DNA of 64,000 nucleotides from Escherichia phage ph0011, in sequence record OP557969.1; one strand, written 5' to 3'. Below are positions 4,665 to 38,413 of this stretch, one piece after another; positions within the stretch are counted from its first letter, which is position 1, and every line of letters begins with the position of its first letter. The notes beneath the pieces are model-generated. The model had not been told where the DNA came from. It made no database searches and saw nothing but the letters and a program-made list of their open reading frames with translations. The translations under genes and the position numbers were made by a program.

Positions 4665-4839
4665 AATCTTTAAAAAAGAATACGATGGTGAAAGCCTTTA
4701 TGATATTCAGAGAGATGTTCATGAAGCCTTTGATTCAAAATTTAACCCATTAGCTGAACAAATCCCACAAGATGAATTTGGTTTTCAGGAAGGCACTTTC
4801 ACAGTGACTATTACATGGAGTCCAGATGAGACTAGCTAA
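4654..4839 (+). CDS. hypothetical protein
   Basis: ORF track; start overlaps upstream gene end. Confidence 0.35.
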   Translation: MQNEIFKKEYDGESLYDIQRDVHEAFDSKFNPLAEQIPQDEFGFQEGTFTVTITWSPDETS

Positions 4840-4944
4840 ACTTGTCATAGGGTGTAGTGCAATTGCTGCATATATGATTTTTTCACCTCCAACCAATGTA
4901 TTACTGCTAATTTGGGCGGTTGTTATATTAGCAGTACTTTAAAG

Positions 4945-4975
4945 CACCCCATAGTGGGTGTTTTTCTTTTTTTGT
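4945..4975 (+). terminator. putative intrinsic terminator
   Basis: short GC stem (gcaccc/gggtg) followed by long T-run tttttcttttttt. Confidence 0.45.
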
Positions 4976-5106
4976 ACAAATAAAAAGCAATGTCTCAATT
5001 CCTTGATATAGGTCAAGAGAAATAACCAGCTATTACGCTATAATGCTTTCTGTTGTTGTTAAATAACTTCACCCCCAGATGATTTCAAAAATACAAGGAG
5101 TGTACT

Positions 5107-6912
5107 GTGCAATTGAATAAATTATACACGGACGTAACGAATTTTCTAAACCAGAGTAATACTGATCTTACAAATGAAAACGCAAATAAAGATGCCAAAT
5201 GTGTAAATACACACAGAGATTTACTTGCTGGTATCTTATCTAAACATTATTCACAAGATGTTATTCCAAAGGATCTAATGCAGTGGCACAATGATGGATA
5301 TGGTCACATTCATGATTTGGACTACTATATTAGTCCATTAACAAACTGTTGTTTGGTTAATTATCCAGATATGCTTAAACATGGGTTTACTATCGGGTGT
5401 GCTAAAATCGAAGAACCAAAGAGTTTTAGTGTAGCATGTACGGTGCTAACACAGATTGTACAAGCTGTTGCAAGTTCCCAATATGGTGGTCAATCGTTGG
5501 CTCACATTGATGTCGGATTGGAACCTTATGTACAAAAGTCTTGGGAAAAGTTATTAGAAAAACAAAAGAAATATAATCTAAGCGATGATTTTATTGAAGA
5601 AGAATTACGAAAAGAAGTATATGATGGGTGTCAAACATTACTATATCAGACCAATTCAATGATTAGCACTAATGGACAAGCTGCATTCATTTCTCTTAGT
5701 TTAGGACTTAATACTTCCAAATTTGGAAAATTAATCACTGAACAGTACTTGAAAGTTCACGAGAATGGTTTAGGTAAAGATAAGATTACACCAGTGTTTC
5801 CTAAAGTTATTTTCTTTCTACAAGATGGTATTAACATGAATGTCAATGATAGTAATTATGATCTTAAACAGTTAGCTATGCGTTGTGCATCAAAAAGAAT
5901 CTATCCAGATTTTGTTTCAGTACCATTAAATCATAAAGTGACGGGAAGTAGTAGCACTGCGGTAACACCGATGGGCTGTCGTTCATTCTTAGGAAAATGG
6001 GAAGATTCAAATGGAAATGAACAATACAACGGTCGCTTCAATTTAGGTGTAGTTTCTATCAATTTACCACTAATTGCTCTTGAAAGTGCCTCAGATGGAG
6101 AGTTTTTTGATAAAATAGACGAGCATATGAATATTGCATATCGTGCTCAGATGAACCGCGTAGAGCGTTTAAAAGGTACAAAAGCGAAACAGAATCCAAT
6201 TTTGTTTATGGAAGGTGCATTAACACGTTTAAGTGCAGAAGAAACTATTGACAAGCTATTTTACAATGGTTATGCTAGTATTAGTATTGGTTATGTTGGA
6301 CTTGTTGAATGTTCGGAAATCCTCACTGGTTCTATCAGTAAGGAGTTTTGTATGTCAGTACTGAATTATATGAAAGTAAAATGCGATGAGTTCAAAAAAG
6401 AAAGTAATATTGCTTTTAGTCTATATGGAACTCCAGCAGAGTCGCTTTGTTATAAATTTGCACGTTGCATTGAAGCAAAATATCCTTCAGTTCTCAAACG
6501 AGATTTCATTACAAATTCATTCCATCAACCAGTATGGGTTGAAAGTTCCGCTTTTGAAAAGTGGGATTATGAGGAAAACTTTGCGTATCTAAGCAATGGT
6601 GGGAATATTAGCTATGTTGAAACACCAAACCTGGCTAATAATATACAAGCACTTGAAACATTGATCAATTATGCATATGATAAAATTCCATATTTTGGAA
6701 TTAATCAGAAAGTAGATAAGTGTTTTGAATGTAATTTTGAGGGAGAATTTAGTGTAGATAAAAATGGTTTTCATTGCCCTGTATGTAATAACAGAAATGA
6801 GCGAACAATGTCTGTTATACGTAGGGTATCTGGATATCTTAGTGCACCAAATAGTCGCCCGTTTAATAAAGGTAAACAAGCTGAAGTAATTCAGCGTATA
6901 CAGCATATGTAA
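5107..6912 (+). CDS. nrdD: anaerobic ribonucleoside-triphosphate reductase (class III RNR), GTG start
   Basis: N-terminus and C-terminal Cys-pair zinc ribbon plus glycyl-radical motif [12 protein letters not shown] match NrdD family as recalled from T4 NrdD; AAGGAG 7 nt upstream of GTG. Confidence 0.93.
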
Positions 6913-6923
6913 GGAGATATATT

Positions 6924-7286
6924 ATGTCAATTCAAGGTAAACAAGTAATGTCAGGTGAGCACATCGGAACCATCATGCTGGTGGATAATGATATTGCACG
7001 TATTATTGTATCTAAAACATTTTCAGAAAATGATGAAGTACTTTTGAGTACTTTTGACGGCGAAGAACTTCGTGACGTTCAGGTTAAACATGAACCTGGT
7101 ATTGAAGGTGGTCAGCATTTGAATGTAAATGTTCTATCTAAAGAACAACTCATTGATGCACAAAATAACCCTGAAAAGTATCCACAGCTTACTATTCGTG
7201 TTAGTGGTTATGCAGTACGTTTCAATTCACTAACAAAAGAACAACAAGATGATGTAATTTCTCGTACATTCACAAAAGAACTATGA
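6924..7286 (+). CDS. grcA: autonomous glycyl radical cofactor (GrcA/YfiD-like spare-part protein)
   Basis: C-terminal [10 protein letters not shown] ... [35 protein letters not shown] is near-identical in pattern to E. coli GrcA/PflB C-terminus; AAGGAGA SD. Confidence 0.85.
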
Positions 7287-7612
7287 TGGATTTAAAACCA
7301 ATTGTAGTGAACAAATACAAAGAACCGTATGATGTGTACATTGGTCGTGGGTCTAAATGGGGTAACCCATTTACCCATATCAATGATAAACAGACAAAAG
7401 CCGAATTCATTGTTGCTACAAGGGAAGAATCAATTGAAAAATTCCGAGAATACATTATTGACCGTATTTCTAATGGCGAAATTAAAATTGATGATTTACT
7501 TGAATTAGCAGGTAAACGTCTTGGATGTTTCTGCAAACCAAAATCATGTCACGGCGATGTTCTTGTTGAAATAGTGAGTGCAATATTAGATGAATTACCA
7601 GACGATAATTAA
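7283..7612 (+). CDS. DUF4326-like protein
   Basis: [12 protein letters not shown] ... [13 protein letters not shown] motif set; ATGA overlap with grcA. Confidence 0.6.
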
Positions 7613-8069
7613 AGATGACCTTATTAATGGTGAGGGGGTGAGGTGCTCCCTTTTTGTTAGTGGGTGTAGCCATTGTTGTGCCAAATGCTTCAACGAAAAG
7701 GCATGGGATTATAGAAGTGGCCAAGAGTTCAGTACTGAAACAATTGATATAATTTTAGCTGAACTCAGTAAACCGTACATTAGTGGGTTATCACTACTTG
7801 GTGGAGATCCACTAATGAAAAAGAACATCGAAACAATTTTAGAACTATGTAAAATTGTAAAAGATACTTATCCAAATAAAACTATTTGGTGCTGGAGTGG
7901 GTATACTTTAGAAGAGATTATGGATAATCATGCATCTCCAATACTGGAGTACATAGATGTATTGGTTGATGGTAAATTCATAGAAGCAGAAAAGAATTTA
8001 GAATTACCATTTAGAGGCTCTAATAATCAACGTATTCTTCGCAAAGGCGTAGATTATGCATTATCTTGA
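7590..8069 (+). CDS. nrdG: anaerobic ribonucleotide reductase activating protein (radical SAM)
   Basis: N-terminal Cys cluster GCSHCCAKCFN typical of NrdG-type activases; position adjacent to nrdD. Confidence 0.85.
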   Translation: MNYQTIIKDDLINGEGVRCSLFVSGCSHCCAKCFNEKAWDYRSGQEFSTETIDIILAELSKPYISGLSLLGGDPLMKKNIETILELCKIVKDTYPNKTIWCWSGYTLEEIMDNHASPILEYIDVLVDGKFIEAEKNLELPFRGSNNQRILRKGVDYALS

Positions 8070-8096
8070 TATTACAGAAATGTGGAAATATATGAA

Positions 8097-8121
8097 GAAG
8101 CACCCTTTGGGTGCTTTTTTT
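8097..8121 (+). terminator. intrinsic terminator
   Basis: gcaccc-ttt-gggtgc hairpin followed by 7 T. Confidence 0.7.
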
Positions 8122-8128
8122 ATAATAT

Positions 8129-8136
8129 TATAAATA
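8129..8136 (+). promoter_or_regulatory. T4-type late promoter motif TATAAATA
   Basis: exact TATAAATA about 30 nt upstream of the 8168 start. Confidence 0.55.
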
Positions 8137-8167
8137 CACTATGAATATCTAGATAGAAGGGATATAT

Positions 8168-10867
8168 ATGGCAAATAAAATATATGGTGGTATTGATGTT
8201 ACACACAATGTCACAGTAAAAGGTAAGAGAAGTGCTCAGAGCATCAATGATGACGTATTTGATGAAAACGGCAATCTCACAATAGATGCATATACACAAA
8301 ATGATATGTTAGAAATGGTTGGTATGTTACCAATTTCTCGTTATGGTACACAAAACTATCTACCTGCTGGGGTTAATGGTACAACAGTTGGTTCTTCAGA
8401 AAATATTAATTCCAGAAATACAAAATTATTTTTGGAAGATGATAACACTTTAGTAATGTTACGTCCAGGTACTAATGGTAGTACTCAAGGTGTTTATTAT
8501 AGTTATATGACCCAAGCAGTAGGTACAACAAATACAAGTCGTATGGTTAATACTACTCGTGCATATAAACCCAATTACTTTGGTGCAGCATACGCAGTTT
8601 ATTTGTACCCAAGTAGTAATGATATTACTTGCGGTTTAGTGAGAATGGAGAATACCGATGGTACATATGTTGATAAAGTTTTTGTGTCAGATAATAATGG
8701 TACATTGAATGATGCAATGCACACTGGTATTATTCTATCAGATCATACAGCAGTACAACCTTTTGGTGCAATACAATTTGTTATTCGTGCAGAAGATGGT
8801 GCATTATATTTTTTTAGTTTAGACACACCAAATAATACTCTTAAAATATCCGTTACTAAAGTTACTTTTAGTCCAAGTAATAACCCAGGTGGTGGTACTT
8901 ATAGTATTACTAGAATTACTGGTTGGACTACAAGAACTTTTTATAATGCAATGATAGCTGATGAGAACATTGTTCCTACGATGAAAATAAATTCAACAAA
9001 TACCAATGATACTCCATACGTTTTAATTCCAAGCGGTATTATTGGGTTTGGTGTTTATATGACAGATCCAGATTTATATGTTGCACAGAGATCAGGTACA
9101 TCTACATTCAAATTTAGATTATGTGGTGATATGTGGATGAGTAATGGTAGATATGACATACGACCACAACATAGTTTTAGTATGACTTTTGATGTTGCAA
9201 CGAAGCAATGTGCACTCGATAATATGACAACGACTACACCAGTTGCTGTTTATGACAATGGTTCTAGCATGAATGCAACTGGACCTTGCTTGACAACTGA
9301 CCCATTTTATCTTCATGCAGGTGCACGTAATATTTTCAGTAATTATTGCTATATTCCATCAACAGGGGATGCGTTTTGTTCATTTTCACCAAACCTAGCA
9401 GAACCATTGAATTTATCATATGCAAAATACCCACCAAAATCTTTATTTGATTTGATGGATGTTAGAAGTGTGTCAGCAACTAATTTTATTAATGGTGTAG
9501 TAACACCAAGATTTGGTTCAGCAGTTGGGTCATACCAAGTAGGTGTAGAGTTATTACCAAATAACAGTACTAAACAATATTCAAGACGTTCTGGTGATGG
9601 TCGTTTTTTTCCATCCTATGCTGTTCATAAATCTACACCAAACTTTACATTCAAGTCGTTGAATTATGGTACAGTACCTGGTTATGAACCAACACCTGAC
9701 AGAAATTTCATAACCACACCAGAATCACGCATTTTTATAAGTTCAATATCTGGTTCAAACGTCACTACTAATGGTGGTGTTTTGGTTGCTGACATTAGAA
9801 CATCAACACCAATTAGTTTTGATTATAAAGGTAATGTACTGAATAATGGTACAATCAGTATGTCTCAAGATATAATGAATGCTATTAGGAATTCAGAATT
9901 TGCTAAAGTTGCTGGTTCTTGGGATATATCCCCAGCATCAGTAAAAACATTATCAGTTTTCGTTCCACAACAAACTGATATTCCTGTTTTCGCGGTTCTT
10001 GCTGCAACAACTAATTCCAGAGGACTATATATTCGTATGATTGAATTAGGTGTTAATACAAGAACAGGAGATATTACAACGTGGGCATTTAAACGTTTAG
10101 TACATGAAAGTGTTCAAGCTCTGGATTACAAAACTGATGCCGGATATTATCTTGATAGTGGAAGTATTGGTATTACTATATATGATGCTGGTTCTTTTTA
10201 CTTCATTGGTGGTGGTATTCCAGGTTTCTTTCCTACAGTTGGTAATACAGCTTCACCTTTTTTTCGTGCTACTGTAGATAAAGCAAGTAAGCAATTTAAT
10301 AATTTCCATATAGCTGGTAATCGACCTATCTATGCATTAGACGGTCAACCATTTGCTTTACCTGGTATTGGATTTGGTATTCTTCAAAGTATAGATCTTC
10401 AAAACAAAACTATTTTTAGAAAGTATGGAACTACATTAGAAGATTATAATGCATGGACTGATAAAGGAGATCCATTCATTTGCGTTGTTTCACAAGACGT
10501 TGCTCAAGGTTTTATTATATACTTCACTGAAGAGACACCAGTACTGATATCAGGTAAGCACTATACATTACCAATATCAAATATTGATTTAACAAAAGTG
10601 AAAGCAAATCCTGCGAATACTACATTTTATGTGTATATTAAATTAGTGCAGGGTATTGCAAAGTATCATATATCAACAACTGAATTAGCTGAAACTCAGT
10701 CAATATTCTGGATTGGTACAGTGAAAACTAATGATTTACAAATAACCGAAATTAATATCGTTAAACGTTCTCGTTTAGATCTGTTTGGTGCATCCTATGA
10801 CGCTGCCGGAAGTTCATTCCCAGTTAGTTCTGGTTTCCCTTCAGGTTCTGGTAATGTGAATTGGTAA
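8168..10867 (+). CDS. large putative tail fibre / receptor-binding structural protein (paralogue A)
   Basis: 899 aa, S/T/G/N-rich; late promoter upstream; N-terminal LPISRYG motif and conserved ~90-aa C-terminal module shared with 10878 and 11479 ORFs. Confidence 0.5.
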   Translation: MANKIYGGIDVTHNVTVKGKRSAQSINDDVFDENGNLTIDAYTQNDMLEMVGMLPISRYGTQNYLPAGVNGTTVGSSENINSRNTKLFLEDDNTLVMLRPGTNGSTQGVYYSYMTQAVGTTNTSRMVNTTRAYKPNYFGAAYAVYLYPSSNDITCGLVRMENTDGTYVDKVFVSDNNGTLNDAMHTGIILSDHTAVQPFGAIQFVIRAEDGALYFFSLDTPNNTLKISVTKVTFSPSNNPGGGTYSITRITGWTTRTFYNAMIADENIVPTMKINSTNTNDTPYVLIPSGIIGFGVYMTDPDLYVAQRSGTSTFKFRLCGDMWMSNGRYDIRPQHSFSMTFDVATKQCALDNMTTTTPVAVYDNGSSMNATGPCLTTDPFYLHAGARNIFSNYCYIPSTGDAFCSFSPNLAEPLNLSYAKYPPKSLFDLMDVRSVSATNFINGVVTPRFGSAVGSYQVGVELLPNNSTKQYSRRSGDGRFFPSYAVHKSTPNFTFKSLNYGTVPGYEPTPDRNFITTPESRIFISSISGSNVTTNGGVLVADIRTSTPISFDYKGNVLNNGTISMSQDIMNAIRNSEFAKVAGSWDISPASVKTLSVFVPQQTDIPVFAVLAATTNSRGLYIRMIELGVNTRTGDITTWAFKRLVHESVQALDYKTDAGYYLDSGSIGITIYDAGSFYFIGGGIPGFFPTVGNTASPFFRATVDKASKQFNNFHIAGNRPIYALDGQPFALPGIGFGILQSIDLQNKTIFRKYGTTLEDYNAWTDKGDPFICVVSQDVAQGFIIYFTEETPVLISGKHYTLPISNIDLTKVKANPANTTFYVYIKLVQGIAKYHISTTELAETQSIFWIGTVKTNDLQITEINIVKRSRLDLFGASYDAAGSSFPVSSGFPSGSGNVNW

Positions 10868-10877
10868 TGGAGAGAAT

Positions 10878-11468
10878 ATGTCTTATAAATTTAGAGCAGA
10901 TGTGGAAGCTTATGCTTCCGTTAAATCACAAGGAAAAAATACTGGGACCACGATAACTGTTCGTTCTGGTAATGTGTATCAAGCTGATGCAAATGGGAAT
11001 ATTGATATACCAGTCATGAGTACAGATGATGTGAATTACATTACCAGTTCGTTTCCGTTATCACAATTTGGACCACTTTACAGTGATGAACCATTAGGTA
11101 TTACTTCTGCGGGTTTCAATTTAACTTTCAGCAAAGAATTACCGTTATTCATGGCGGGAGCGGCGTATACCCTCCCAGCAAAAACAATAACAGATCCTGG
11201 TGTTTCTGGTACTAATATTGAAACACATTATGTATATGTTATATTAGATGTTGGGGTAGCTGACTACCTCATTTCTAAAACTCAACGACCTGAAAGTAGT
11301 GTTAATATGTACATCGGAAAACTAACAGTTTTCCCAGATGGCATTACAGGGGTCAGTATAAATAAAGTGTCAAGATTTGACAACTTCAGAGTAAGTTCTA
11401 CAAAAATTGGTTCAGCTATCCCTATCAGTTCTGGTTCACCAGATGTGAATGGTATGATAGAATGGTAA
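10878..11468 (+). CDS. small protein carrying the fibre C-terminal module
   Basis: C-terminal ~90 aa (YIGKLTV ... VSRFDNF ... GSAIPISSGSP) aligns with C-termini of both flanking ~900-aa proteins. Confidence 0.5.
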   Translation: MSYKFRADVEAYASVKSQGKNTGTTITVRSGNVYQADANGNIDIPVMSTDDVNYITSSFPLSQFGPLYSDEPLGITSAGFNLTFSKELPLFMAGAAYTLPAKTITDPGVSGTNIETHYVYVILDVGVADYLISKTQRPESSVNMYIGKLTVFPDGITGVSINKVSRFDNFRVSSTKIGSAIPISSGSPDVNGMIEW

Positions 11469-11478
11469 AGGAATATAT

Positions 11479-14220
11479 ATGGCTTCTAGACGAATTATAG
11501 GAAACGCAGATATACTAGGGAATTTAAAAATTAATGGAAAGTATGCATTACGTTCCCTTAATGGTGTTCCTGCTGACTCTGCTGGTAAAATCACTTATCA
11601 ATATTATGACAAAGCGGAAGTAAATCAGATATTTGATATGCTTCCAGTTTCAAGGGTAGGTGATCAAGATTACCTACCAATGAGTATTAACGGTACTTTT
11701 GAAGGTGCTTCTTCCTTTTCATTTGCAAAAATAATGCAACCTTGTATCATTGAAAATGATGGAACTGGTGTAATTTTACGTGCAGGTACAAATGGAAGTT
11801 CTTATGGTTACTATTATACTTATATTAAAAATATAAGAGATATAGAAACACTAACTCAAGATAATATAATTACAACCAATACGATGTATAGACCGTCTGT
11901 GCTACCAAGTACTGATTACATTTATGAATTTTATGGGTCAAATGCATATGAATTACTATTTTGGGAATCAACTGATAGAACATCATATTACCTTACATTA
12001 ACAAATGAAACATTGAATGAATCAGCACACAAGCATTGCAGAATTCCAAAAACAGCAATAACAAATAAACCAATATATGCACACATCGTAAATGATTCAG
12101 TTTATATATGGTGTATGGATTCAAGTGTATTTAGTAGTGTTCGCGGGTGTGCATTTATTATATACACAGTACCTTTAACTGCATTTAATACTGGTTCAGT
12201 TTCTACCGTAACACAGATTGGTGGTTATTCAGGAAGAACTATAAGAGATGCAACATATACTGCATCTAATAATATTCGCGTTTATGATAGCTATTCTATT
12301 TTAGGTTCAGGTGGTGATGCACTAATAGTATATGATAATGGTATTTCCAGAATAGATTATTGGGAAAATAACGTATTTAATACCCAAGCAGTTCTTAGCC
12401 CAGATGGTACAAAAATAAGAGTTGCGATCTATCCAGGATTCCGTGTTTTCACTGAAACAAAAACATCTAGTGTATATGCACTTGGTATTAGCTTTACATA
12501 TGATATCAGTACTAAAACAATGACACTTGACGGTTCTGAACGTGGTCCAATCAGAGTATCAGCTAATACATCAACTGGTAGTATAACAGTAAGAAACCCG
12601 TTTTCAATCAATATGGAAAACTTTACAGGGTTTTATGACGGTGCACTTGGCAACTATGGTTCAATCTGTCAAACTTCTGATGGTTTTGTTTTCACCACCA
12701 AAGCAAGATGGACATCCACACCAACATATGCAGTACAAACATACAAAGTTTCTGGTACACCTTATGATAGTTGGGTCGCTAAAACACGTACTGCTAGTAA
12801 TTTAAAACGTGTCGAAGTAATGCCAGTTTATGGTTCCCCTGTCGGTGAAAACTTAATAGGTGTTCGTTTCGTAGATAAACGTAAGATACTTGTTGCATGT
12901 TCTGGCACTGCTGATGGAATTTCTTATGGTTATGATAGTACAGTTTTTACTGAAATAGGTGAGAATCCGACTTATGTTTATAAAAACTTGGAACAAAATA
13001 CCACAATGAATGGTTTTGCACCATCAAGTAATAGACACTATTTAAGTACTGATTACAAATATGCAGGTATGATAACATTGGTTGATGCAAATGGAAATGT
13101 CAGCACTTATGGTTCTTCGTTAATAGAAGACATCGATAAACCAGCGTATGGAAAATTCGACCCAGTTACAATGGACTTCGACAGTAATAGATATGAAATT
13201 TCAGGAACAACATTATCAAGTATAGGTGATAATGCAATCGCTAAAGCTGGATTGTCTGGAATAACTGATCATAAAACTGTTTTTTATTATGTACCTGATA
13301 CTACATATTCTAAATCGATTGCAGTCACTTCTGCATTAAACGGTACTACCAATGTGTGTTATATTATTTTTTCCGAAATATCATGTAGTGCAGTTGGTAC
13401 AAGTGGTACTATAATTTTACGTGATATTAATGTTGATACAGCAAGATATACATCAATGACGAATACATTCCAAATTTCACCAAATGAAATGGTCAAACGT
13501 TGGGCTGGTATGACGGTTTCTAAGTTTAGTGGTTTTAACTACTTAGGTGTGAACATTTTATATGGCATTGATACCCCAGGTTGGACTCGTTATCCTAACA
13601 TGATTGCTAAAGTGAAAAATGGTATTATTTCAAGTCAACGATATATGGAAACAACTTATATTTCAAACGCACAATTTGATATAGGTACAATTCCAGGGAT
13701 TGGGTTTGGATATTACCAAATGAACAAAAACGATTATCAAACTAAATCAGTTTTTGCTGTATGTGGTACTACTGAAGCAGATATGGATAAACTAATATCT
13801 GGTAATGAAACGATATCACAGTACTTAGTTATTGCTTCACAGGACGTGGCACAAGGGTTTCATGTATACTTTTCACAAGAAGTACCAGTTTTCTTGGGTG
13901 GAAAGTTTGCAAAGATACCACCGACTATGATAGACTTATCTACTATAAGTACTACACCAGAGAATTCAACATTCTACATATATGCGGTGATGGATAGAGA
14001 TACATCCACAGCATCGTATCAGATATCACTACATCAATTATCAGAAACTATGACATCAACATACATTGGTAAGATAGTAACTAATAATAATGGTATTGCA
14101 TCAATCGAGTCTGAAAAAGTTTCCAGATTCTTGCTATACCGTCCAAGTACCTACAATCGTGGTTCTGCGATCCCAGCAAGTTCTGGTGTTCCGTCAGGAA
14201 CAGGTACACGTTGGAATTAA
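11479..14220 (+). CDS. large putative tail fibre / receptor-binding structural protein (paralogue B)
   Basis: 913 aa; N-terminal MLPVSRVGDQDYLP and C-terminal GSAIPASSGVPSG module shared with 8168 ORF. Confidence 0.5.
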   Translation: MASRRIIGNADILGNLKINGKYALRSLNGVPADSAGKITYQYYDKAEVNQIFDMLPVSRVGDQDYLPMSINGTFEGASSFSFAKIMQPCIIENDGTGVILRAGTNGSSYGYYYTYIKNIRDIETLTQDNIITTNTMYRPSVLPSTDYIYEFYGSNAYELLFWESTDRTSYYLTLTNETLNESAHKHCRIPKTAITNKPIYAHIVNDSVYIWCMDSSVFSSVRGCAFIIYTVPLTAFNTGSVSTVTQIGGYSGRTIRDATYTASNNIRVYDSYSILGSGGDALIVYDNGISRIDYWENNVFNTQAVLSPDGTKIRVAIYPGFRVFTETKTSSVYALGISFTYDISTKTMTLDGSERGPIRVSANTSTGSITVRNPFSINMENFTGFYDGALGNYGSICQTSDGFVFTTKARWTSTPTYAVQTYKVSGTPYDSWVAKTRTASNLKRVEVMPVYGSPVGENLIGVRFVDKRKILVACSGTADGISYGYDSTVFTEIGENPTYVYKNLEQNTTMNGFAPSSNRHYLSTDYKYAGMITLVDANGNVSTYGSSLIEDIDKPAYGKFDPVTMDFDSNRYEISGTTLSSIGDNAIAKAGLSGITDHKTVFYYVPDTTYSKSIAVTSALNGTTNVCYIIFSEISCSAVGTSGTIILRDINVDTARYTSMTNTFQISPNEMVKRWAGMTVSKFSGFNYLGVNILYGIDTPGWTRYPNMIAKVKNGIISSQRYMETTYISNAQFDIGTIPGIGFGYYQMNKNDYQTKSVFAVCGTTEADMDKLISGNETISQYLVIASQDVAQGFHVYFSQEVPVFLGGKFAKIPPTMIDLSTISTTPENSTFYIYAVMDRDTSTASYQISLHQLSETMTSTYIGKIVTNNNGIASIESEKVSRFLLYRPSTYNRGSAIPASSGVPSGTGTRWN

Positions 14221-14224
14221 TTTT

Positions 14225-14255
14225 AAAGCTCGTCTATTGACGGGCTTTTCTTTTG
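14225..14255 (+). terminator. intrinsic terminator
   Basis: aaagctcgtc/gacgggcttt hairpin (one G-U pair) followed by T-rich run. Confidence 0.6.
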
Positions 14256-14288
14256 TGTGTATAATACAAAGAAATATAGGAGGAAATT

Positions 14289-14855
14289 ATGGTCAAATCA
14301 TTACTACCACCACCAAAACGACATAAAATTAAAGAAATGAAAGAACAACGTACATTAAAGATGTACAACAATTTAGTTAATTTACTTTGCAAAAGTCCAT
14401 CACTCAAAGAAATATTCACCACAGATGATGATCGTAATGCACTTATTGAGATGAAGTATATGCTCAGTAAAATGTCCTTTTACAAATTTGTCAAAGAATA
14501 CTCAACTGAACCATTCAGTCCTCGTTGGCGAGTCAAACCAAGAGAGTATTTTTTCGGTGGTTCATATACTGATATCATTCAAGATACGGTGATAGGCGTA
14601 GAGTTCGAGATTGATTATGAGCCTAATGGTGTGGAAAACTGGCAGATTGACAAACATTTACCAAGTGAAGATGAAATTTATGTTTATGCAAGAAAACAGT
14701 CAACTTTCAGTTCAAAAATTGCTCTTAATAATTTAGATTCATTTATTATTTTCTATACATTTGTCGGTGTAGATAAAATGGCAACTAAACTCAATGAATT
14801 ATCATTGCAACAAAAACAGATTAATGCATACAAAGACATTACAGATTTATACTAA
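14289..14855 (+). CDS. hypothetical protein, paralogue family member 1
   Basis: AGGAGG SD; shares motif TTDDDRNALIEMKYMLSK with next two genes. Confidence 0.55.
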   Translation: MVKSLLPPPKRHKIKEMKEQRTLKMYNNLVNLLCKSPSLKEIFTTDDDRNALIEMKYMLSKMSFYKFVKEYSTEPFSPRWRVKPREYFFGGSYTDIIQDTVIGVEFEIDYEPNGVENWQIDKHLPSEDEIYVYARKQSTFSSKIALNNLDSFIIFYTFVGVDKMATKLNELSLQQKQINAYKDITDLY

Positions 14856-14867
14856 TGAGGATTGGAT

Positions 14868-15383
14868 ATGTTTTTTGGACAGTTTAAAAAACCTGACAGT
14901 ACTTTAATTTGGCATGAAATCATCTTTAAAATTATATCTAAAAGCTACTCACTAAAAGATATTATCAAAACAGATCATGATCGACGTGTTCTGTTAGAAG
15001 CAAAATATAAATTGAGCAAACACCCGTTACTTTCTTTAATCATTGATTACGTTAATGATTATGAATCCAGTCGTTGGAAGTGGGAAGACGGAGGTTTATT
15101 TCGTGGAAAAACATTCTACGGTGCAGAACGATATGTATTCAGTGATACAGCAAATGGTGTTAAGTTTGCTATTAGAAACTTTAACTCCAAAGAAAATGAT
15201 TATCTTGAAAGTGGAGTTAAGGTGTATATAGATAATAATAACAATGTACTTACATATGACGAATCACTAATTATGTTACAAATAATGCGTGGAGTTGAAA
15301 GTGTAAGACACAATCTTACTAAGTTGAAAATCCAGCAAAATGATATACATAATAGACAGAAAATTAAGGGTTTATATAAATGA
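14868..15383 (+). CDS. hypothetical protein, paralogue family member 2
   Basis: GAGGA-7nt-ATG; motif KTDHDRRVLLEAKYKLSK. Confidence 0.5.
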   Translation: MFFGQFKKPDSTLIWHEIIFKIISKSYSLKDIIKTDHDRRVLLEAKYKLSKHPLLSLIIDYVNDYESSRWKWEDGGLFRGKTFYGAERYVFSDTANGVKFAIRNFNSKENDYLESGVKVYIDNNNNVLTYDESLIMLQIMRGVESVRHNLTKLKIQQNDIHNRQKIKGLYK

Positions 15384-15889
15384 TTTCATTTTTCAAAAAG
15401 AAAGAAAAAGTTGATGAAACTGGATTAGAATCGTTTCTATGGACTCTTATCATTAAAAAAAGTCCATTAATGAAAGAATATGCTATCAATGATGCTAATA
15501 GAAAAACTATCATTGAATACAAATACGAATTATCAAAATGTGATCCAATAGTTTATCACTTTGCGAAGTACTGTTCTAAAAATTTATCGGATATCACGAT
15601 TGAACACGAGTCAGTACCAATGAGTTTTCCTTATGGTGATTGGGTAAATACTTTTGATATTTTCGATGGGTCTAATGGATTCCGTTTCTTTTACTCGTCA
15701 AATAAAGCAAATGTTCGTATTAAAACTGAGATAGGTTGGGCACAGCATAGCACAAATAAAGAAGATTATAATTTACTAGCTGACGTATACCGAAGTGTGA
15801 AGAATTCAAAGGATATTGATGAAAGAATTAAAAAGCAAAATCGTATTTCTTTATCACTTGAAACATACAAGTCAAAGTATGGTGGTTAA
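15380..15889 (+). CDS. hypothetical protein, paralogue family member 3
   Basis: ATGA overlap; motif INDANRKTIIEYKYELSK. Confidence 0.5.
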   Translation: MISFFKKKEKVDETGLESFLWTLIIKKSPLMKEYAINDANRKTIIEYKYELSKCDPIVYHFAKYCSKNLSDITIEHESVPMSFPYGDWVNTFDIFDGSNGFRFFYSSNKANVRIKTEIGWAQHSTNKEDYNLLADVYRSVKNSKDIDERIKKQNRISLSLETYKSKYGG

Positions 15890-15891
15890 CT

Positions 15892-16293
15892 ATGACTACA
15901 GTTGATGATATCTATAGTACTATACGCAATATGAGCACAGATAGAAAAGTATTTGGTGATAAAGAAAAATCTAAGTGTTATGGTATTGATTCTTTTGATA
16001 TAATTTCGTATGAGTACAATACGAATGGAAATAGTTCACTGAATATTGTCTGCCCTCGTGACCCAGAAAATAATTTTATGTATGTTGAAATTAATAATGA
16101 TGGAATGTTTTTTACAAAAGTTTTTAAAGGTGGAATTAATTACGAAACAATTGAATGTATGAATGAAGAAACTTTCTTTCAAGAAGATACAATTATCAAT
16201 TTAGGTTTTAGTTTTGATGATTATAAAACATTAGAACATGACTTTAATCGTTATTATAACGGTTTCTTAAAGGAGTTAACAATTTATCTATGA
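15892..16293 (+). CDS. hypothetical protein
   Basis: ORF track; tight spacing. Confidence 0.45.
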   Translation: MTTVDDIYSTIRNMSTDRKVFGDKEKSKCYGIDSFDIISYEYNTNGNSSLNIVCPRDPENNFMYVEINNDGMFFTKVFKGGINYETIECMNEETFFQEDTIINLGFSFDDYKTLEHDFNRYYNGFLKELTIYL

Positions 16294-35368: not shown

Positions 35369-37363
35369 ATGAATAATGAAGAATTGAAAAAACTTTTGTT
35401 GTCAAAACATATTAATTCATGGGTACATTTATACAAAGGGGACTCTCATGTGAGGGATCTCCTTTCTATTTTTGGAATAGAACCAAAAACTGATTTCGAA
35501 ATATATAAAATTCTATATATGTTCATGAATGATATATCAACAATCCCAACTGCATATTGCGGAAAAAAAGCAAGATATAAAAATTTTCAAAAAGGATTTT
35601 ATAAATTTTGCGATGATTATATTATTAATAAAAAAAATACATGTAATGTATGTCATGAAATGTATTATAAAAATCGAACAAATAAAACAAAATCAACATT
35701 AATGGGTATGTATGGTGTATCTAATGTGTCCCAGATCCAAGAAGTAAAGAAAAAGAAAGAAAAAACTAACATGGAGCGTTATGGTGTTTCTACTAATTTA
35801 CAAACATCAGAATCTAAAGAGAAAATCAAACAAACTAATATAGAGCGTTATGGATGTGAATATCCAAACCAAAACCCTGAAATATTTAATAAAGTAAAAG
35901 AGACAAATTTAAAAAAATATGGTGTTGAATTCCAAAGTAAAAGAAATGAAGTAAAAGAGAAAGCAAAAAATACAAATATCTTAAAATACGGTACTGAGTA
36001 CTCTTTATCATCACCGACGATTCGTGAAAAAATCAATAAAACAAATCTTGAACGATATGGTGGTAACCCACTATCAAATAAAATTATCCAAGATAAAATA
36101 AAAAATACCAATATATTGAAGTATAATTCATTTTATCCAATGAGCAATTTGGATGTTCAGAAAAAAGTTCATAATACAAATGTGGAAAGATATGGTGTAA
36201 AACACCCATCCCAGAATAATTCTATTATTGAAAAAATGAAAGAAACCACAAAAAATAGATATGGGGCTGAACACTACTCACAAACTGATGAGTATAAAGA
36301 GAAAATGTCACTTGCTCATCTAGACGAAAGATATACTATAATTGTTGAAAATATTGATAAAAACTATATTCCATTATTTGAAAACACAGACCTGATGATG
36401 AAAGTTAACACCGATGAATACCCATTTTGGTGTGAATATTGTGATGATTTGTTTTATAGTAAGTACAAAAATCATAAAGTGAAATGTAAGTGTCAGAAAA
36501 ATAATGGTCATTCCTTGAAAGAGAAAGAGTTAGTTGATTATATAAAATCATTAATACCAAATATGGAAATTATAGAAAATGACCGTTCAGTACTGAAACC
36601 TAAAGAGTTGGATGTGTATATTCCAGAACTTAAACTAGCTATTGAATTTAATGGTGTTTATTGGCATAATGATGAAAATATCAATTCTACTAAACATCAA
36701 GATAAGGTATTAGATTGCTTAAAACATGGTGTAAATCTTATTCACATTTATGAAGATGAATGGGATAACCCATTAACCAATAAAATTATCAAGGAACGTT
36801 TAAAGAATAAACTTCTAGCGTCTAATAGAATTTATGCTAGAAAATGTACTGTTAGAAACATAGACAAACAAGTAAGTAATAAGTTTGTGAAATCACATCA
36901 TATCCAAGGTGTTGCACAAGCAAGTATACACATTGGGCTTTACTATGGGTGCGATTTAGTTGCTGTTATGACCTTTGGTAAATCAAGGTTTGATAAAAAC
37001 TATGAATATGAATTAATCAGATACTGTTCATCTGGTACAGTTGTTGGTGGTGCATCAAAATTACTAAAATATTTCGAAACCGTATATAATCCACAATCAT
37101 TGTTGACATATGCTGATATGGATTGGAGTAATGGTAATCTTTACACGGTTCTTGGTTTTGAGTTAGATAGCTATACAGAACCTGGATATTTTTATTATGA
37201 CCCACAAACGCACGAGAGAATTTCACGTCAAAAATGTCAAAAACATAAATTGATTAAGAAAGGTCACGATATCAACTTAACCGAGAGACAAATTTGCTGT
37301 GATGTATTGGGATATTATAAGATTTACAACTCTGGTAATATAAAATACACAAAAAAATATTAA
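35369..37363 (+). CDS. multidomain protein: N-terminal region, eight tandem ~25-aa repeats with (E/K)(R/K)YG core, PD-(D/E)xK (Vsr/DUF559-like) endonuclease motif, C-terminal domain of unknown function
   Basis: repeats NMERYGVSTNLQ / NIERYGCEYPNQ / LKKYGVEFQS / ILKYGTEYSL / LERYGGNPLS / ILKYNSFYPM / VERYGVKHPS / NRYGAEHYS; ELDVYIPELKLAIEFNGVYWH nuclease-like motif. Confidence 0.5.
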   Translation: MNNEELKKLLLSKHINSWVHLYKGDSHVRDLLSIFGIEPKTDFEIYKILYMFMNDISTIPTAYCGKKARYKNFQKGFYKFCDDYIINKKNTCNVCHEMYYKNRTNKTKSTLMGMYGVSNVSQIQEVKKKKEKTNMERYGVSTNLQTSESKEKIKQTNIERYGCEYPNQNPEIFNKVKETNLKKYGVEFQSKRNEVKEKAKNTNILKYGTEYSLSSPTIREKINKTNLERYGGNPLSNKIIQDKIKNTNILKYNSFYPMSNLDVQKKVHNTNVERYGVKHPSQNNSIIEKMKETTKNRYGAEHYSQTDEYKEKMSLAHLDERYTIIVENIDKNYIPLFENTDLMMKVNTDEYPFWCEYCDDLFYSKYKNHKVKCKCQKNNGHSLKEKELVDYIKSLIPNMEIIENDRSVLKPKELDVYIPELKLAIEFNGVYWHNDENINSTKHQDKVLDCLKHGVNLIHIYEDEWDNPLTNKIIKERLKNKLLASNRIYARKCTVRNIDKQVSNKFVKSHHIQGVAQASIHIGLYYGCDLVAVMTFGKSRFDKNYEYELIRYCSSGTVVGGASKLLKYFETVYNPQSLLTYADMDWSNGNLYTVLGFELDSYTEPGYFYYDPQTHERISRQKCQKHKLIKKGHDINLTERQICCDVLGYYKIYNSGNIKYTKKY

Positions 37364-38357: not shown

Positions 38358-38413
38358 AATATAAACAATAAAGACTGGTCATTTAAATCCTTCAATAAAT
38401 AAGACTATACGAA

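Follow-up and report, generated by a model that had tools for sequence, protein, structure and literature searches.

Three tandem genes of Escherichia phage ph0011, designated here g1, g2 and g3, occupy positions 8168-14220 of the 64,000-nucleotide (nt) stretch of sequence record OP557969.1 that was analyzed (the window), and encode two proteins of about 900 residues on either side of a mini-protein of 196 residues. Each of the large proteins is a shoulders domain, assigned as such from its predicted structure, that carries a predicted beta-propeller body of ~710 residues in a loop; the mini-protein is the same domain uninterrupted. The favored explanation, to which a probability of about 0.6 is given, is that all three are shoulders-anchored late virion proteins of the tail periphery, with propellers for the host surface and with g2 as a headless form. 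The three genes are probably a swappable host-recognition cassette and not fibers. The locus shares ~91% nucleotide identity with Escherichia phage A4 (Asteriusvirus; a jumbo myovirus of the RaK2/121Q group), and a literature search found no published description of a fold or role for this protein family.

In the proposed arrangement g1-g3 would be virion proteins at the periphery of the tail or baseplate, made from one late operon. Their common attachment unit would consist of an N-terminal segment of ~65 residues (a helix and an LPxSRxG strand), a sandwich of ~100 residues and a tail of ~26 residues that ends in Trp; by analogy to the shoulders of the p2 receptor-binding protein (RBP) and of TssK, found in type VI secretion systems (T6SS), this anchor might trimerize and dock at the periphery of the baseplate. 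The g1 and g3 bodies would present carbohydrate-recognizing propellers to the host surface, the variable body being the part that probably contacts it, and g2 would be a headless partner or place-holder within the same assembly.

The split domain proposed as an anchor, and its inserted body

The three open reading frames (ORFs) have the coordinates and sizes given in the first-pass annotation of the sequence, are co-oriented and are separated by gaps of 10 nt. Their parts are as follows.

8168-10867, + strand: g1, ORF of 899 amino acids (aa); split anchor of predicted shoulders type with inserted beta-propeller body
8168-8362, + strand: N-terminal anchor segment of g1 (aa 1-65), with a helix at 44-51 and the MLPISRYG strand; homologous to the g2 N-terminus
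8363-10477, + strand: variable body of g1 (aa 66-770), with ~52 predicted beta strands in at least two beta-propellers of lectin/sialidase/glycoside-hydrolase type
10478-10786, + strand: C-terminal beta-sandwich module of g1 (aa 771-873), the main portion of the shoulders-like domain
10787-10864, + strand: C-terminal tail of g1 (aa 874-899, GSSFPVSSGFPSGSGNVNW), conserved, of low model confidence as a monomer
10878-11468, + strand: g2, ORF of 196 aa; headless mini-paralog with N segment, sandwich and tail, without propeller body
11479-14220, + strand: g3, ORF of 913 aa; architecture as g1 (N anchor aa 1-67, body 68-781, module and tail 782-913)

Over 969 aligned columns the large proteins g1 and g3 are 26% identical (E 3e-52), a homology that runs through their whole length; the N-terminal motif first noted in them is indeed shared, but as part of this full-length homology and not of the ends alone. 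The C-terminal module described as common to all three is also real, with a length of ~120-130 residues instead of the 90 first proposed: residues 77-196 of g2 align with 779-899 of g1 (36% identity, E 2e-18) and with 791-912 of g3 (37% identity, E 1e-18), and the motifs quoted for it, TFYVYI, Y.IS, IGK, VSRF and GSAIP.SSG.P, are visible in the alignment of homologs. The small gene had been read as an N-terminal stub plus this module, and the stub proves to share homology with the start of the large proteins: its first ~65 residues match their N-termini weakly in pairwise comparison (E 0.003), and a profile of the mini-proteins matches g1 in two collinear pieces, g1 1-70 (E 9e-11) and g1 779-899 (E 3.5e-48). 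The two pieces abut at profile position 76/77 and sit at the extreme N- and C-terminus in every large homolog; ~710 residues separate them in g1 and g3, and only in g2 is the anchor contiguous. The body is therefore inserted within the anchor domain.

The shared C-terminal region comprises a beta domain of ~100 residues and a conserved tail of ~26 residues with an invariant terminal Trp. The pattern of the tail is GSxxPxSxGxP...W, of which the G, P and terminal W are invariant across the mini-proteins, and it may be a neck-like oligomerization or docking element. Some distant relatives have additional domains after the tail, in which a Pfam scan found no known domain. Among metagenomic mini-proteins (P0073, P0100, P0136, P0143, P0149, P0166, P0178, P0185, P0184, P0191) some bear other N-terminal leaders before the LPxSxxG strand, either a coiled-coil-like stretch with the motif A(D/N)N...NPHG.T..Q.G or the motif Y....G.VP....L..GEIA.N..D..LY.K...G.V. 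Both leader motifs are typical of tail-fiber N-termini, a hint that different adaptors are joined to the anchor unit. In the chimalliviruses the genes just upstream of the module genes share, as read by eye, another N-terminal domain (V.FVPRAAPFF...) that is found in EL ORF113, RAY gp17, Proteus phage 10 QMP24009 and the N-terminal extension of the large EL ORF114, suggestive of a second attachment element in that lineage.

The structure of g1 was modelled as a monomer with AlphaFold2 (AF2) from an alignment of 54 homologs. The model is compact and all beta (predicted local distance difference test score, pLDDT, 85.6; predicted template modelling score, pTM, 0.81), with pLDDT of at least 70 at 797 of the 899 residues and below 50 only at residues 1-25 and 874-899. 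The large proteins had first been called fiber-like; the model is instead globular, apparently built of beta-propellers and free of fibrous repeats, and neither a repeat-rich shaft in the model nor a Pfam fiber domain was found. The body is predicted to have the 5- to 7-bladed beta-propeller fold. Its structural matches, at 4-12% identity, are headed by two non-catalytic fucose lectins and include sialidases, enzymes of the glycoside hydrolase (GH) families GH130, GH43, GH62 and GH32, and the phi11 receptor-binding protein. Each match spans 200-285 residues and there are ~52 strands in the body; at least two propellers are therefore predicted.

Structure prediction of the shared module, proposed as a check with the first-pass annotation, gave in a monomer model a beta-sandwich shoulders fold with its associated N-terminal helix, as in the p2 RBP and TssK. 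Fold-comparison values are highest for the lactococcal phage p2 RBP (9.9), followed by the cyanophage A-1(L) tail fiber (8.3), the phage 1358 RBP (8.0), SPP1 gp22 (7.9), the Haloferax virus HFTV1 tail fiber gp42 (7.0), T6SS TssK (6.4, 6.2 and 5.6), a phi812 baseplate protein (5.9), Mtd (5.0), the TssK homolog IglD (4.5) and a baseplate protein of the Anabaena contractile injection system (3.7), and the first match unlinked to phage tails or contractile systems has a value of 3.1. Shoulders is the domain common to the p2 and 1358 RBPs, SPP1 gp22 and TssK; it is trimeric and binds the baseplate through a loop on one of the baseplate's proteins: in p2 and 1358 that loop is the Dit "hand", and in the T6SS it is provided by TssG (PMC7291167, PMC6300606). 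The loop enters a cavity at the center of the trimer. Since the module has, in the model, the fold of a baseplate-docking domain, it is taken to be an attachment domain and not a receptor-binding tip. The earlier proposal of a receptor-binding or assembly domain stands in its second half; a tip is at odds with the module's being the most conserved part of the proteins, with its predicted shoulders fold and with the domains that follow it in some relatives.

The three-gene cassette and its putative late-transcription signals

A profile of the module finds 564 cluster representatives (clusters at 50% identity) among 1.84 billion proteins. Most members have 870-1200 aa with the module at the C-terminus, together with many mini-proteins of 170-250 aa, and the family occurs in RaK2-like phages and, unrelated to these, in chimalliviruses (RAY gp18-20, EL ORF114/115, Goslar gp26/gp28 and pVa-21). 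g1 and g3 match phrog_3573 over their full length (E 1.2e-196 and 4e-210) and g2 likewise phrog_26864 (E 8.3e-47), both of them families of unknown function. Homologs carry labels such as hypothetical, "minor tail", "structural" or "membrane" protein. Pfam and NCBIfam searches of g1-g3 (E up to 1 or 0.1) gave nothing useful, a weak match to DUF5484 (E 0.15) being disregarded, and DUF7941, the domain of the chimallivirus filament proteins (Goslar gp22/gp23), has no Pfam match in g1-g3; nor are Goslar gp26 and gp28 in the list of DUF7941 proteins given by the authors of the Goslar study. The gene order nrdD-nrdG-three genes is kept in 121Q (gp499-501), phAPEC6, CBB (gp147-149) and the Yersinia phage fHe-Yen9-04 (g137-139).

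Comparison of related phages places the module among the best-conserved parts: mean identity among orthologs is 0.64 in the N segment, 0.69 in the module and 0.74 in the tail, against 0.48 in the propeller body. Relative to 121Q, g1, g2 and g3 are 54%, 44% and 51% identical and the flanking proteins 81-98%; relative to A4 the trio is 88-94% identical and the downstream gene cluster only 35-60%. The trio diverges jointly against conserved flanks and therefore appears to be one hypervariable, exchangeable cassette, a pattern that resembles the one usual for host-range determinants. The downstream cluster itself, at 14289-16293, contains tandem paralogs of 188, 173 and 169 aa (phrog_18641/phrog_7868, function unknown) that share a ...D.R..L.E.KY.LSK motif, and an ORF of 133 aa. 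It is 87-98% identical to 121Q and 35-60% to A4, the inverse of g1-g3; these opposite patterns make the window a mosaic, in which a recombination junction lies near 14220-14290. The gp501 gene of 121Q (locus 5365-8106) is annotated from 5446 (886 aa), and the homology to g3 begins ~27 codons earlier; its annotated start is probably too far downstream.

The composition of the sets varies between lineages. It is big-mini-big in Asteriusvirus, big-big-big in CBB and fHe-Yen9-04 (middle genes of 916 and 895 aa), mini-mini-big in XaC1 and mini-big-big in a metagenomic contig, all permutations being seen except a mini in last position. Tandem module triplets also occur in RAY, Proteus phage 10 and pVa-21. 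The sets are not always of three, since EL and contigs L016, L017 and L019 have two detectable module genes each; EL ORF116 and ORF113 were considered as third members and show no similarity. By nearest-neighbor identities, the g2 module clusters with large proteins of the CBB_148 type, and that of the mini-protein P0080, first in its mini-big-big set, with large proteins of the g1 type. Headless forms have therefore arisen more than once, and most simply a mini would derive from a full-length paralog by internal deletion of the body. Of the modular exchange or duplication first suggested, tandem duplication accounts for the paralogs and exchange of modules is not supported; the sequences fit duplication, internal deletion of the propeller body and exchange of the whole three-gene cassette.

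Signals for transcription and translation around the set are listed below.

8094-8121, + strand: hairpin of an intrinsic terminator, with its GC stem at 8100-8114 and its T run at 8115-8121, at the end of the upstream nrdD-nrdG unit
8129-8136, + strand: T4-type late-promoter-like motif TATAAATA, 31 nt 5' of the g1 ATG
8155-8162, + strand: putative Shine-Dalgarno-like sequence AGAAGGGA for g1, read from the sequence
11357-11364, + strand: second TATAAATA, in the 3' part of g2, 115 nt 5' of g3
14225-14258, + strand: intrinsic terminator from a terminator scan, closing the three-gene unit; 10-bp stem with 5 GC pairs, then TCTTTTGTGT

The hairpin at 8094-8121 has a predicted RNA folding energy of -16.8 kcal/mol (z = -5.4; none of 200 shuffles was as stable) and is also found 5' of the orthologous genes in A4, 121Q, phAPEC6, CBB and fHe-Yen9-04. 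Four Asteriusviruses, CBB, fHe-Yen9-04 and one metagenomic relative all have ATAAATAC at positions -38 to -42 relative to the gene that opens the set, and the arrangement of hairpin, ATAAATAC and ribosome-binding site is kept across those phages despite differing surrounding sequence; the late-promoter motif that had been noticed before the first gene gains support from this conservation across four genera or lineages. ATAAATA, proposed as the late promoter of this phage group by the authors of the CBB study (PMC5259590), is ~3.6-fold under-represented in the window (11 observed, 39.8 expected; all 100 shuffles higher). Copies lie at 8130, 38395, 41465, 45233, 45759, 58348(-) and 58401(-), and several of the remaining ones are just 5' of ORF starts, including that at 38395 before the tail sheath gene (38454), a pattern that agrees with a late-promoter signal which selection removes elsewhere. 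The copy of TATAAATA at 11357-11364 is present at the same place in A4 and absent in 121Q, and is possibly an internal late promoter or due to chance. With a terminator and the conserved ATAAATAC before them and a terminator after them, g1-g3 form, on these signals, one putative late-transcribed operon.

Virion evidence and alternative explanations

Members of the family are found in phage particles, and by homology the same would hold for g1-g3. In phAPEC6 the g1 ortholog gp323c was detected by electrospray ionization tandem mass spectrometry (ESI-MS/MS) of particles with 4 peptides (PMC7247149). In Goslar, gp26 is a large homolog (E 1e-83 to the family profile) and gp28 a mini homolog (E 8e-22), represented respectively by 21 peptides at ~12.8 copies per virion and by 10 peptides, 61% coverage, at ~14.3 copies; gp27, encoded between them, is present at ~13.8 copies (Table S4, 2026 preprint). 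The Goslar tail-fiber proteins gp25 and gp29, which flank gp26-gp28, are present at 75-87 copies, and in pVa-21 and Proteus phage 10 the homologous genes lie among tail-fiber or baseplate genes. Goslar gp27 (161 aa, locus L008, 3383-3868) is collinear with the mini profile at NPH..T, LP, VPATTLDVSG and IGTW; its match to that profile is marginal (single-target E 1e-3; hhalign probability 1.4%). The phAPEC6 record MK817115 annotates gp323c alone of the trio, plus a spurious 37-aa gp322c, and contains intact unannotated orthologs of g2 (195 aa, locus L005, 4209-4796) and g3 (~913 aa, ~4800-7542), which in the record fall on the complement of about 240,079-243,412. Several other data sets were set aside: the ORF numbers in Table 4 of the CBB mass spectrometry differ from RefSeq and are not mappable to gp147-149, the CBB "structural protein" label may be by homology, and the mass spectrometry of RAY and Deimos-Minion was done on crude lysates, a measure of expression only.

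A number of points weigh against shoulders-anchored proteins of the tail periphery. The 4 peptides of phAPEC6 gp323c amount to 5.6% coverage (PMC7247149), the phAPEC6 orthologs of g2 and g3 are unannotated and therefore undetectable in the published virion proteome, and the Goslar preparation also held non-virion assemblies, according to its authors. No virion structure or map places the family: the peripheral baseplate of Goslar is unresolved and the paper on it says nothing of gp26-28, and the tail of phAPEC6 has been mapped at 25 A with no proteins assigned. The shoulders assignment comes from a monomer AF2 model and fold comparison, and PDB sequence profile searches with the family alignments gave no relevant match to any solved structure. 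The order of domains differs as well, the shoulders of the p2 RBP and TssK being N-terminal and contiguous and followed by neck and head. Finally, glycan binding is suggested by the predicted fold class alone, and Pfam and NCBIfam (E up to 1 or 0.1) gave no signature of a propeller lectin, sialidase or GH family and no carbohydrate-binding or catalytic family match.

Tentatively, the paralogs might, in place of separate homotrimers, co-assemble through their shoulders into one pseudo-threefold heterotrimer (g1:g2:g3 = 1:1:1), with ~12 per virion, each having fewer propeller heads on account of its mini chain. Tandem triplets are found in fixed positional lineages across Asteriusvirus, CBB, fHe-Yen9-04, XaC1, a metagenomic contig, RAY, Proteus phage 10 and pVa-21, all three genes co-diverge as a cassette, and the equimolar Goslar gp26, gp27 and gp28 fit 12 heterotrimers, two per wedge as for TssK (PMC6300606); phiKZ fibers are likewise built from paralogs with a common attachment domain (PMC13250141). 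However, sets of two occur in EL, L016, L017 and L019, the similarity of Goslar gp27 is marginal, and the copy-number range of 8.5-22 also permits 18, i.e. six homotrimers of each protein. The corresponding proposal, of an asymmetric heteromeric receptor-binding unit whose heads (three, two or one) are tuned by body deletion in one or two chains, is similarly doubtful; if true, it would explain both the recurrent permutations of big and mini genes and the near-equal ~12 copies per virion. To our knowledge a pseudo-threefold heterotrimeric RBP with its binding domain inside the anchor domain is undescribed for any phage.

It is rather unlikely that the propeller bodies, instead of being passive adhesins, act as sialidase-, GH- or phosphorylase-like depolymerases on a surface glycan. 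Enzymes are among the fold matches of the body, but the two best are the non-catalytic lectins, the Pfam and NCBIfam searches yielded no catalytic family, and distant relatives such as EL ORF114 lack the Arg of EDDGTxVxLRxGTNG, the body motif that is best conserved.

An improbable assignment is to the "hairy" whiskers, collar or capsid fibers of phAPEC6 and CBB, as anchors or components. These phages do have unassigned hair-like appendages on tail and capsid and several virion proteins without assigned function, gp323c of phAPEC6 among them. However, the g1 model is globular and not filamentous, the family is present in GAP32, which is reported without whiskers, and in chimalliviruses, whose collar filaments are another protein (Goslar gp126), ~13 copies per Goslar virion are too few for hairs, and the fold relatives are baseplate-docked proteins.

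That g2 has no virion role and is either a deletion remnant in decay or a chaperone of assembly, itself non-structural, as its small size, lack of a body and missing phAPEC6 annotation might be read, is very improbable given an intact ORF in all Asteriusviruses (44-91% identity, invariant P, G, Y and W positions), the independent recurrence of minis in XaC1, Goslar and several metagenomic lineages, and Goslar gp28 in virions, with good coverage and equimolar with the large homolog.

Neighboring genes, significance and known systems

Two further genes of the window may be mentioned. The 120-aa ORF at 6924-7286, between nrdD and a DUF4326 gene, is an autonomous glycyl-radical cofactor, a GrcA/YfiD-like "spare part" (TIGR04365, E 8e-38; RVSGYAV motif), labelled "pyruvate formate-lyase" in phage A4, and adjoins the genes for NrdD, an anaerobic ribonucleotide reductase, and for NrdG, the activase of NrdD. 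A homing/HNH endonuclease ORF of 664 aa at 35369-37363 (phrog_3339, E 2e-165) lies just 5' of the deoxynucleoside monophosphate (dNMP) kinase and tail sheath genes.

Taken as shoulders-anchored tail proteins, g1-g3 and their relatives bear on the RaK2/121Q-group jumbo phages and the nucleus-forming chimalliviruses, which are therapy candidates whose host-recognition apparatus is largely unassigned. The 564-cluster family carries no functional annotation anywhere, and its members are concrete candidates for the density still without assignment around the baseplates of 121Q, phAPEC6 and Goslar, at their periphery. The locus would also be a defined 6-kb unit for host-range engineering, delimited 5' by a terminator and the putative late promoter and 3' by a second terminator, and the headless paralog makes the setting of valency in such assemblies testable.

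The true homologs (phrog_3573 and phrog_26864; 121Q, CBB, fHe-Yen9-04, RAY, EL and Goslar) have the same architecture and tandem arrangement, with E down to 1e-298. The other known systems resemble g1-g3 in fold or in organization. The lactococcal p2 and 1358 RBPs (PDB 2WZP, 4L92) are trimers of shoulders, neck and head with the shoulders fold of the module, but have no sequence similarity to g1-g3; theirs is a contiguous N-terminal shoulders domain, then a neck and a jelly-roll head, whereas in g1 and g3 the host-facing body of ~710 aa apparently sits inside the shoulders domain and is made of beta-propellers, and g1-g3 belong to a jumbo myovirus of Gram-negative bacteria. TssK of the T6SS baseplate (PDB 5M30, 6N38, 5Y0E) has a helical neck and a head that binds the membrane complex, is without propellers or split topology, and is a cytoplasmic and not a virion protein. 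Bacillus phage SPP1 gp22 (PDB 2XC8) shares no sequence similarity, is without the conserved G-S-x-x-P...W tail, and has no large paralog with the same domain beside its gene.

The phiKZ proteins gp131-gp135 are alike in being jumbo-phage paralogs with a common attachment domain and otherwise different; gp131 carries a seven-bladed beta-propeller, and they co-assemble into a heteromeric fiber base, with 12 fibers per baseplate (PMC13250141). gp131 differs in that its shared domain is N-terminal and forms a helical bundle and its propeller is C-terminal, and a PDB profile search that includes the gp131 propeller returned no sequence relation. Identity of the family with the outer-baseplate framework proteins gp26 or gp27 (898 aa) of phiKZ was rejected, as there was no hidden Markov model (HMM) match, nor was there one to gp28. 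A shoulders anchor and propeller heads are thus known kinds of element, and what is new is their split arrangement, the recurrent headless paralog and the occurrence in jumbo myoviruses, an apparent extension of the p2-RBP/TssK docking module to the jumbo myoviruses of Gram-negative hosts with an unusual split topology.

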